NCBI RefSeq assembly: GCF_013167455.1
Contig: NZ_CP038328.1
Strand: one strand, 5' to 3'
Origin: Escherichia coli O157:H7
GTDB lineage: Bacteria; Pseudomonadota; Gammaproteobacteria; Enterobacterales; Enterobacteriaceae
DNA: 64,000 nucleotides
Shown here: positions 27,001-30,000 of the stretch, in pieces
Numbering within the stretch: the stretch's first letter is position 1
How the letters are laid out: the number at the start of each line of letters is the position of its first letter
Made by a program: the position numbers

Positions 27001-30000
27001 CCAGCAACCGGAGAGAGTTCGACGGCGGCATCATTGCCCACGCCGGAGGTGCCGGTGGCTTCACGCACGGTACCGGGGCAGGTGGCGTTGATCCGCAGGC
27101 GCTTACGACCAGCGGCAACATCAGCACGCAGAGTTTCATTTTCAGCTCTCGCATCGGCTAATTCCCTCGAGTATTTTGCATCGAGCGCAGCAACATCACG
27201 CTGGCGCACCTGCATGTCAGTAATGGTGGCATTCGCCTGTTCCAGCTCTCTGGCTTTTTTATCGCGCTGCGCTTTGTAGGTGAGCGCGTTGTCACGGTAA
27301 TGGTTTGTTGCCAGCCACAGCGCACCACAGCCAACCGCCATGACAATAATCACCACACACAGAACACGGTTCATCTCTCTTTCACCCCACCAGTCCCGAT
27401 AACGTCAGGACTCGCCAGGCGGTGGAAAAGAAAATGGCAACCAGCATGACTAAAAATGAAATGCCGACAAGTACACAGAGGCTCTTCACCAGCGTTATGA
27501 GTTTATCTGATATCATTAGCCACCCCATCAATCCGCCTTTGTTATTTTCCCTTTGCCTGTATCAGCCAGGACAAAATCAATCAGCATATTCGCTTCATTT
27601 ACCAGCGTACGGATTTTTGATACATGCGCGGCTTTAACCTGTTTCCACTCATTCAGCCCGGTAGCAAACACACTGGCAATGTTTTTATCCCGTTTCATGT
27701 CAGCACAAGCCTGGTTGAGTTCTTCCATCACGCTCATTTTACGGGGATTAACGACAAAACCCTTCGTCCAGTACTCGTAAAGAACATCGTCGCACTCTTC
27801 CTGATACCGGATGACCTTATCGCGGATTTCGGGTTTTACTTTGTTGGGATTAATGGTTTGTAGCCAGCCGGCAAGTTTTCGAAGTGGCATGGACACCATA
27901 TTGCGTTGTTTCCCATCCTCAGCAACCATAACGATTTCCGTTATAGTTGACGCAAAACGCTGTCTTAACTTAGCCAACTGTGATTGCCAGGCCAGCCCCA
28001 TCCCCGCAACGACAGGTTTCATGGGAACGTATGGTTCGCCATTATGGTTAACTACATAAAGAGAGTTGCCGTGAAACGGCACGGCCATCATATTCATCGG
28101 TTATTTCCTTTTAGTGATGAACCTTGTCTCACAGGAATCCAGCCCACAGAAAGGCACCGACAGCCAAACCGGTATCCTCAAGGGTCATCCTGAAAGGTTC
28201 TGTGTTGTGAGATGCGCGTGAGATGCGCAGAAATGACAAAGGCATCATTACGGTGCCTGAGTGTTAAACAACTGTTTTGACTTTATTCACTTACATTTTG
28301 CCAATTTGCAGGATTTCGTGTTATCCGTCCATGTAAGCAAACCTCATTTTTCAGCAAAATATTCTGCTTATCTGTCGATTCCCCAGCACGCCAGCGCGCT
28401 CTCCTGGTCACGACGGGATACCTGACCGTAACAGTTATTTGAGCGAATACGGCAGTCCCTGCCACCGTCCTTAATCCACCAGCGAATCGCTTCGCAGGCA
28501 CCTTTTCGATCTCCTGCATTAATCCGTCTGTAAAACGTCGACGGGAAACACTTACCGGGGCCAATGTTGTACGGACAGAATGACGCAATCCCCGCTTTCT
28601 GGGGTTCGGTCAGTGGCACTCTGATGTTTTTCTCCACCCATGCCAGCGCCTTATCACGCTCAATGGCGTTAACCCGGTCGCATTTTTCCTTCGACAGCTT
28701 CATGCCAGGAATAACAGGCTTACCATCCACCCGGGTGGCTCCACGGCAGATGGTCCAGATACCCGCACCATCACGGTATGCTGTGGTGTGGTTACCTTCC
28801 TTTTCATCCAGAAACTGGTCGAGGATTTCAGGCGCAGACGCCCCTGCACCAATCAGCGCCAGAACGGCAGCCGACAGGCCGTATCTGATTTTTGCGTTCA
28901 TGGATATTTATCAGGGTTTATCGATTTCAAATCCCTGGATATGTTAAGTCTTCAGGCCAGCGGTGGAGTCTTCAGAGAACCCGTAATTATTCCCGGTAGT
29001 TTTCCTCTGTAGGTTATCAACACATCCTGCGCCTCTAAAATTACGGGACGCTTTTCCGGTAACGGACCATCCCCTTCACATAACCCGGCAGCAACATCCA
29101 TGAAAAACTGCTTCGCCTGCTTTTTCGCCTCAGCTTCGTAAAACTCCAGCGTGGCACCTTCAGTACGGTCAAGACTAATCGCCACATCTGGCAACAACAG
29201 TGACGGATACCCACCAATTTCCAGTGCCACAGTAACAGTAATCTTATCCGGGTAATTATTTATCCCTTTAACAACCAGTTCGTATTTTTTCTTCATCGCT
29301 TTACTCTCCCCGCGCCGCCTTACGACGGTCCTCTCTGATTTTGAAATACAGGTTAGTCAGATACGTCAGCAGGCCAAACAGCAGACTCCCCAGCACACCT
29401 ATCGCCACCCACTGGGACGGAGAGACTTTGTCCAGCAGCTGCAGTAACCAGTATCCCGTCCCCACCGCTGACGTGGTGTATGACACACCCGTTGTGATTT
29501 TTTCCATCTGGTACATACCCCGTCTCCCGCAATCCGGAAGCTCACAACAACAGGAGGGGCATCAGCTCACACCGACAGCCCCTGCGTATGGTTACATCAT
29601 CATTTCGCCGCCAGGCTGAGGCTCACTGCTACCGTCAGGCTGAGACACAACGCCATCTGAAACAGCACTGTCACCCGCGCCGTCTTCAGGCTCAGGAGCA
29701 GCCGGTCCCCCCAGCAGCTCATCCAGAATGGCATCCACTTCAGCATCAAGACGCGCCTCAAGATTCTGGCGGAGTTGCTGTTTCAGTGCGCTTCTGACTT
29801 CTTCAGAGCGCAGGACGTCCTTCACTGCTTCAGCAGTGACCAGAGATTTTATTTCTGACATGGGATTTTCTCGTTGAAAGGTGTTGTTAAGAAAGTTGCT
29901 ACGAAATGAGAGGCTCTTCGGGTTTTGTTCCGGCTGACTGGCTGGCGCTGATTTTTTCCGCCGCCGCGGCATCAATCTTTTTGCGTATATAGTTCCGGAT

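Follow-up and report, generated by a model that had tools for sequence, protein, structure and literature searches.

Organization of the lysis cassette

The 64,000-nt stretch of Escherichia coli O157:H7 DNA analyzed here (the window; contig NZ_CP038328.1) spans a lambdoid prophage whose lysis cassette occupies the minus strand between positions 26907 and 29516. From a list of open reading frames (ORFs) and direct reading of the sequence, the order along that strand is holin (S), a 114-aa ORF, lysozyme (R), a 270-bp spacer, an Ant-like gene (ant), a 48-aa ORF (orf48) and the Rz/Rz1 pair. An earlier note on this DNA had described a cassette of pinholin, signal-anchor-release (SAR) endolysin and Rz/Rz1 interrupted by two extra genes, namely the 114-aa ORF and the antirepressor-like gene. 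The gene identities, order and coordinates given there all match minus-strand ORFs, with profile matches far above chance. The count of extra genes did not hold: there are three, because the conserved 48-aa ORF (27382..27528) overlaps the ant stop codon, and the 270-bp spacer between R and ant had also been overlooked.

The core genes constitute a phage-21-type pinholin/SAR-endolysin/Rz-Rz1 lysis system. The 71-aa holin (29301..29516, on the minus strand like all cassette features below) belongs to the S21 family: it matches Pfam PF04971, 'Bacteriophage P21 holin S' (E = 1.1e-32), and phrog_9876/phrog_20, is annotated by PGAP as 'class II holin family protein', and has a possible dual start (M1/M4). 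The 177-aa lysozyme (28368..28901; phrog_7 endolysin) aligns over residues 9-174 with PDB entries 3hde_A (E = 6.5e-18), which we take to be the phage 21 endolysin R21, and 4zpu_A, which is RrrD (E = 1.3e-17). Residues 5-27 form a Gly/Ala-rich, weakly hydrophobic N-terminal stretch (Kyte-Doolittle [KD] hydropathy, 1.9), and the catalytic motif E35-x8-D44-x5-T50 is visible in the translation. By this segment and motif the enzyme has the sequence features of a SAR endolysin, and its release from the membrane is predicted. The i-spanin Rz (26907..27374, 155 aa; phrog_13, E = 7e-73) carries in its +1 frame the embedded o-spanin gene Rz1 (26948..27154; phrog_3198, E = 2.7e-31), whose product has the lipobox LVVSAC; the pair is a two-component spanin.

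A YdfR-family gene between holin and endolysin

The 114-aa ORF (28952..29296) starts 4 nt past the holin stop codon, and a GGAGAG Shine-Dalgarno sequence sits at the right distance within the last codons of the holin gene. It matches Pfam DUF1327 (PF07041) over residues 1-112 (E = 1.9e-46) and phrog_406 (E = 1.2e-64), and is a member of the YdfR family. Homologues are numerous, with 47-99% identity, and the DUF1327 N-domain, including that of the window protein, has an invariant E46 and an invariant E51-F-Y-E54 motif. The earlier note had called the product soluble, and so it appears, because it has no hydrophobic segment (maximum 15-residue KD mean, 1.41). Over the N-terminal 74 codons, the ratio of nonsynonymous to synonymous substitution rates (dN/dS) is 0.23 between the window gene and a 62%-identical relative and 0.22 between the same relative and K-12, compared with about 0.5-1.2 in the other two frames of the same DNA. 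The ORF is a real gene under purifying selection in frame, and the possibility raised earlier of a non-conserved frame falls away.

Of 5426 complete E. coli genomes, 2923 (about half) contain DNA resembling ydfR, and 1257 of these have at least 80% of the gene length. As a protein family DUF1327 is narrow: in a set of 1.84 billion representative proteins, only 56 clusters were found at 50% identity. Two giant repeat proteins (P0141 and P0161; 3093 and 3443 aa) matched query residues 13-55 through 14-19 'TVTVT..GG' repeats; these matches were judged compositional and discarded.

The family is modular. The DUF1327 N-domain (residues 1-74) is followed by a linker (residues 75-112), a coiled coil and a C-terminal domain, the last of which has no Pfam match. 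Full-length forms measure 287-296 aa (P0121, P0202), some loci keep the C-terminal modules alone as proteins of 186-223 aa (L047, 3404-3964; L029, 2907-3548), and N-domain-only forms occur in the window and in K-12, each with its own distinct tail. The window and K-12 proteins are 47% identical over residues 1-74. An AlphaFold2 (AF2) model of the window protein has a three-stranded sheet followed by a long helix (beta-beta-beta-alpha; residues 5-73, pLDDT 72-88). A fold search with YdfR returned no significant match, and the phrog, NCBIfam and PADLOC profile libraries assigned it no function. The AF2 model of a 296-aa full-length member had a mean pLDDT of 50 and was not used for fold searching.

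By comparison of these forms, the 114-aa protein looks like a truncated version of the 287-296-aa modular protein. The 50-bp spacer that separates its gene from R (28902..28951), compared with the K-12 sequence, ends in ATAAATATCC-ATG, and these last bases are homologous to the final K-12 ydfR codons, which overlap the start of rrrQ. Because the bases preceding R match the 3' coding end of K-12 ydfR, the window gene looks 3'-truncated, and the spacer is most likely the remnant of a longer ydfR 3' end.

The insertion has a consequence for the start signal of R. The GGAGAG in the last holin codons serves whichever gene comes next (window 29301-29320; L084, 1680-1700; L002, 3040-3060). In phage VT2-Sakai that gene is R; in the window ydfR uses the site instead. 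Because the inserted gene takes the holin-embedded site, R is left with no recognizable Shine-Dalgarno sequence in the 50-bp spacer, where a conserved ATAAATATC(C/T)ATG precedes it. By removing this signal from R, the insertion could alter the endolysin dose.

A position between holin and lysozyme is typical of DUF1327 genes, not universal. The most divergent member (72 aa; L085, 3001-3219) is encoded immediately before tail gene L in the 6.4-Mb genome GCA_016865525.2. At L087 (3001-3517; lineage L087-L090), two tandem DUF1327 genes stand between an HP1-type holin (PF16080) and the lysozyme.

Recent work on the K-12 protein offers the one experimental lead to function. A two-hybrid screen with RNase G as bait yielded residues 1-72 of K-12 YdfR on three occasions, the full-length protein interacted with RNase E 1-597 in the two-hybrid assay, and Strep-tagged YdfR co-purified RNase E 1-598 together with nucleic acid that resisted DNase; when YdfR was overproduced, few transcripts changed and the cells kept growing (PMC13232886, 2026). 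Our literature search on ydfR with holin and on DUF1327 returned no functional study of the gene in its lysis-cassette position. We propose an RNase E interaction for the window protein because it is 47% identical to K-12 YdfR across the binding region and has the invariant E46 and E51-F-Y-E54. Binding to the catalytic half of RNase E in the cytoplasm is the activity we would name first for it, though only as a tentative assignment.

Genes between endolysin and spanins

The Ant-like gene (27528..28097) encodes 189 aa. Residues 5-113 match P22_AR_N (PF10547; E = 2.3e-45), in keeping with the earlier designation of the gene as P22_AR_N-type and antirepressor-like, and the C-terminal part matches ORF11CD3 (E = 1.8e-5). 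The protein covers positions 7-210 of the 317 in phrog_524, is 100% identical to the VT2-Sakai 'ant' product, and over residues 1-126 is about 50% identical to Ant of P22-like Salmonella phages (tblastn against phages). No solved structure was found to be related to it, and a literature search recovered neither an experiment on the protein nor a functional study of an antirepressor inside lysis cassettes. The 'ant' of phage Phi24B was considered as the same gene and rejected; it is a different, early-operon gene whose product has a P22-like C terminus. Deletion of Phi24B Ant lowered late-promoter activity, and P22_AR_C is the domain common to P22 Ant and this functionally tested protein. Trans-acting antirepressors are known to coordinate co-resident Salmonella prophages, where they are early, LexA-controlled genes (PMC3121763).

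The window prophage has a second Ant module in its tail region (9220-10849), between tail gene L and a C40 peptidase gene, with a layout like that of P22 immI. There, a 292-aa Bro-N + P22_AR_C Ant (9220-10098, minus strand) adjoins Arc-family genes at 10375-10485 (minus strand) and 10595-10849 (plus strand). It is unrelated in sequence to the Ant-like protein of the lysis cassette; this one prophage thus has the two domains of P22 Ant on separate proteins.

The 270-bp spacer between R and ant (28098..28367) was compared with other slot sequences by blastn. Its first ~97 bp past the R stop codon are kept in all cassette variants, and over its full length it is 80% identical to the sequence that precedes an unrelated antirepressor gene at L009. 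That gene (L009, 3339-4034, plus strand; also in L081) encodes a 231-aa protein of phrog_63 (KilAC/ANT type) in the same slot; it follows sequence 80% identical to window 28093-28370 and precedes an orf48-like gene. Antirepressor-class genes have apparently been exchanged as cassettes at this one site. Within the spacer, a 39-aa ORF (28129-28248) matches phrog_16173; it is not kept as an ORF at L009 and was rejected as a gene.

The start codon of orf48 overlaps the ant TGA, and its end lies 7 bp before the Rz ATG; the gene is translationally coupled to ant. Its product matches phrog_4906 (E = 5e-30), is already annotated in phage BP-4795 and in RefSeq, and has one strongly hydrophobic segment (KD maximum, 3.02). 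A core of 43 aa beginning at 'SDKLI' is conserved at 60-100% identity, and dN/dS in divergent pairs is about 0.2-0.5 in frame versus about 0.6-3 off frame. The combined ant and orf48 module occurs in 715 complete E. coli genomes, mostly of Shiga toxin-producing E. coli (STEC), with a median of 3 copies per carrier; 693 of these genomes have at least 80% coverage. Because two unrelated antirepressor-class genes lie behind one spacer and the module is present in multiple copies, we argue that regulators of this class are selected at the site between R and Rz.

Census of the two junctions in related loci

The extent to which the insertions recur was assessed in 80 IMG/VR loci picked by the endolysin query alone (at least 94% identity), onto each of which the six proteins were mapped. 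By mapped proteins, the complete loci comprised S-R-Rz (14), S-ydfR-R-ant-orf48-Rz, the arrangement of the window (13), S-ydfR-R-orf48-Rz (11), S-R-ant-orf48-Rz (7) and S-ydfR-R-Rz (6). The presence of ydfR was uncorrelated with that of ant and all combinations were seen (Fisher p = 0.59, from loci that are not phylogenetically independent). Both insertions therefore recur independently in related prophages, a check the earlier note had proposed.

The junction between S and R could be scored in 71 loci. A DUF1327 gene filled it in 43, long forms being the alternative cargo in some, and 15 had an insert of about 700 bp with an opposite-strand phrog_1853 gene. Proteins of 186-223 aa sharing only the C-terminal modules of the YdfR family accounted for another 6. 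The phrog_1853 gene encodes 104 aa (L058, 3569-3883, minus strand) and is present in 14 other loci with a gap of ~690 bp. S and R were adjacent in just 7 of the 71, so the earlier premise that holin and endolysin are usually adjacent does not describe this cassette lineage. The extra genes are true insertions all the same, as that note had supposed: in loci of the VT2-Sakai type S and R lie 4-7 bp apart, and many loci have no ant.

At the junction between R and Rz (72 loci), 27 had ant with orf48, 19 had an orf48-like gene without ant, and 26 had about 300-400 bp with a different tiny transmembrane (TM) ORF. An orf48-like gene was thus present in 46 of the 72. Two of the 19 loci without ant, L009 and L081, are those with the phrog_63 antirepressor gene. 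Among representatives of this junction (the window, L047, L058, L031, L028 and L009), every one had one to four tiny single-TM ORFs directly upstream of Rz, which encode 33-71 aa and belong to phrog_4906, phrog_6632 and phrog_4493.

Because near-identical S/R pairs occur with and without each insert, neither is required for lysis. The inserts are, on this comparative evidence, accessory, outside the core lysis machinery and dispensable for lysis. Both junctions are recombination-prone cargo slots, and both are filled in the O157:H7 prophage at potC.

Prophage setting and expression signals

Over the 3.3 kb of the cassette region, the sequence matches E. coli O157:H7 strain F8492 with 100% identity. 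The lambdoid prophage in the window adjoins potC and encodes a RacR-type repressor, a Q-like antiterminator and the type III secretion system effectors EspN and NleL. Between Q and the esterase gene, stx genes are absent. The stx-equivalent position (32143-33245) holds a DUF3927 gene and a TerB-family pseudogene, flanked by the Q-like antiterminator gene (33245-34066) and the gene for a 645-aa SASA/NanS-like esterase (30229-32166). The prophage end (1-8125) contains an IS2 copy (337-1242), a GogB fragment, espN (1785-5186) and nleL (5777-8125). The toxin gene hokD lies at 35947-36102, and there are no tRNA genes anywhere in the window.

Signals that might drive the inserts separately were sought in and around the cassette. 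A simple consensus pattern scan found no sigma-70-like promoter on the coding strand in 26500-30300, and a pattern scan for terminators near the inserts gave only weak hairpin-like matches, for example inside the first ant codons. LexA control of the kind seen for Gifsy antirepressors was considered and rejected: no CTGT-N8-ACAG box (at most one mismatch) lies in or near the spacer between R and ant, and such boxes are no more frequent across the window than expected by chance. Neither spacer nor cassette has an Rfam match at E <= 1, and the RNA fold z-score of the 270-bp spacer is -0.83. Because no LexA box, promoter, terminator or Rfam element was detected in the spacer, expression of ant from the late transcript is the default inference. 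It is plausible that the inserted genes are co-expressed at lysis time from that transcript, as the earlier note had assumed. A defense function was likewise considered and rejected, since holin, YdfR, Ant, orf48, the alternative Ant and the long YdfR gave no PADLOC match at E <= 0.01; NCBIfam has no family for any inserted gene.

Interpretation

The reading that fits best is that the inserts are cargo on the late transcript. The overall explanation, of a pinholin/SAR cassette with two cargo-filled junction slots that supply late-made accessory genes, has in our judgment about an even chance of being correct in full; of its architecture and the accessory status of the inserts we are highly confident. 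In the first slot, between S and R, a truncated YdfR-family gene would be translated from the Shine-Dalgarno sequence that serves R in insert-free phages. In the second, between R and Rz, the 270-bp spacer would lead into the Ant-like gene and its translationally coupled membrane-protein gene, the 48-aa product of which is predicted to be located in the inner membrane. The inserted genes would ride the Q-dependent late transcript and be made late in the lytic cycle alongside the lysis proteins. The DUF1327 N-domain may bind the catalytic N-terminal half of RNase E in the cytoplasm and alter RNA turnover late in infection. The Ant-like protein may be a late-made, domain-shuffled Bro-N/KilA-N/Ant regulator whose targets are the repressors or the DNA of other lambdoid prophages in the same cell. 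True antirepressor activity, to judge from its domain content, is doubtful.

Several observations weigh against this account. The YdfR tail has a dN/dS of about 0.7 (residues 75-112) and a pLDDT of about 30 (residues 74-114). The Pfam search found no P22_AR_C in the Ant-like protein, and the prophage already encodes another Ant, with Bro-N + P22_AR_C, next to its two Arc-family genes. The immI context of Arc/Mnt-type regulators is not adjacent to the Ant-like gene, the neighbors of which are the lysozyme gene and the 48-aa TM ORF with Rz. Co-transcription, finally, is deduced only from gene position and the lack of detectable signals.

The inserts might instead regulate lysis timing, the other role that the earlier note had offered: YdfR would partner the pinholin tail or the SAR endolysin, the 48-aa protein would be antiholin- or releasin-like, and Ant would be incidental. 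We consider this unlikely. Position speaks for it: DUF1327 genes stand between holin and lysozyme with two holin families (PF04971 and PF16080), translation of ydfR is linked to that of S and, in K-12, also to that of R, and a tiny TM ORF lies directly upstream of Rz in every representative of that junction examined. The loss of a Shine-Dalgarno sequence from R on ydfR insertion could also lower R dose. Dispensability weakens the proposal, however: near-identical S/R pairs of the VT2-Sakai type work without the inserts, and an orf48-like gene is missing from 26 of the 72 loci. The DUF1327 member that diverges most, next to tail gene L on its upstream side, lies outside any lysis cassette, K-12 YdfR overproduction did not arrest growth (PMC13232886), and library and fold searches revealed nothing that resembles a known antiholin or releasin in sequence or fold.

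That the 114-aa and Ant-like genes are decaying, functionless remnants spread by recombination among co-resident lambdoid prophages seems to us improbable. The coiled coil and C-terminal modules found in the 287-296-aa forms are indeed missing from the 114-aa protein, the 50-bp spacer resembles a leftover 3' end, and the YdfR tail combines relaxed dN/dS with predicted disorder; the Ant-like protein stops at position 210 of 317 in phrog_524, without P22_AR_C, and many frameshifted or fused variants of these genes are found in databases. Yet the N-terminal domain that the truncated form retains binds RNase E in K-12 (PMC13232886), and in-frame dN/dS for this domain contrasts clearly with the off-frame controls. 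Start signals are intact, and same-length intact ORFs at 80% coverage or more are maintained in 1257 (ydfR) and 693 (ant with orf48) complete genomes.

Morons, in the sense of Hendrix and colleagues, are autonomous accessory genes in a late operon with their own promoter and terminator, and the inserts share with them presence/absence polymorphism between near-identical flanking genes. That they are lysogen-expressed morons with promoters of their own, aiding host or prophage through, for example, superinfection exclusion or defense, is very unlikely: the 270-bp spacer is 80% conserved before two unrelated antirepressor genes, as a regulatory region might be, the opposite-strand gene in the first slot of some relatives must have its own promoter, and K-12 Qin genes are, according to a report cited in PMC13232886, induced by cold stress, but the simple pattern scan found no coding-strand sigma-70-like promoter in 26500-30300 and only weak terminator-like matches near the inserts, there is no LexA box in or near the spacer between R and ant and no PADLOC family match for any of the proteins, and ydfR begins 4 nt after the holin stop, which leaves no room for a promoter.

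A bolder form of the cargo reading treats the junctions as selected landing pads, in which an RNase E modulator produced together with the holin would shield or reshape the long late transcript, and the slot between R and Rz, by capturing unrelated antirepressor-class genes behind one conserved spacer along with tiny membrane proteins, would let an induced prophage derepress co-resident lambdoid prophages. We regard it as quite unlikely. If true, it would be relevant to the output of Shiga toxin (Stx) by STEC with several prophages, in which carriers of the ant module have a median of 3 copies.

The arrangement itself adds nothing new, and the interest lies in the functions of the inserted genes. 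They are widespread, ydfR-like DNA being present in roughly every second complete E. coli genome and ant with orf48 being multi-copy in STEC, and they lie immediately downstream of the place where Stx phages carry stx, on the transcript governing release of the toxin. Should YdfR modulate RNase E, or the Ant-like protein cross-induce neighboring prophages, this could influence when, and in what quantity, Shiga toxin and phage are released. The recent report of an RNase E interaction makes the first of these ideas directly testable.

Comparison with known systems

In P22, as in the window, the Ant protein has a P22_AR_N domain; the window protein differs in its C terminus, which is ORF11CD3, and in its location, which is a late lysis cassette rather than immI. 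T4 Srd, T7 gp0.7 and phiKZ Dip are small phage proteins that target RNase E. YdfR resembles them in being small, phage-encoded and, for the K-12 protein, RNase E-binding (PMC13232886), but library and fold searches found no sequence or fold relation to them.

The lysis genes of the window resemble those of phage 21 in having a holin of the 'P21 holin S' family, an endolysin whose whole length, with the N-terminal segment, is homologous to 3hde_A, and Rz1 within Rz. In phage 21, S, R and Rz are contiguous, whereas in the window they are separated by three accessory genes and by spacers totaling 320 bp. The K-12 Qin prophage has the order essQ-ydfR-rrrQ-rzpQ, with ydfR likewise between a class II holin gene and a lysozyme gene and 4-5 nt past the holin stop. 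Its YdfR, however, is 103 aa with another tail and its gene overlaps the rrrQ start, in place of the 40-residue linker tail and 50-bp gap of the window, and neither ant nor orf48 lies between the Qin lysozyme and Rz genes.

The architecture is already known and on record in GenBank and RefSeq; it is not new, because it is annotated in VT2-Sakai, BP-4795, K-12 Qin and RefSeq O157:H7 genomes, and for Stx phages and K-12 such annotation goes back decades. RefSeq names the products, in order, class II holin, YdfR family protein, lysozyme, phage antirepressor N-terminal domain-containing protein, a 48-aa hypothetical protein and lysis protein. VT2-Sakai is annotated S-R-ant-Rz with an identical Ant and, unlike the window, has no ydfR. 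Both VT2-Sakai and BP-4795 are Stx phages, whereas the window prophage has no stx in the interval from Q to the esterase. Many Stx1a and Stx2a phages share the gene order of the window; the Stx1 phage BP-4795 has the complete arrangement (S-ydfR-R-ant-ORF50-Rz), including the 48-aa ORF, at 98% nucleotide identity.

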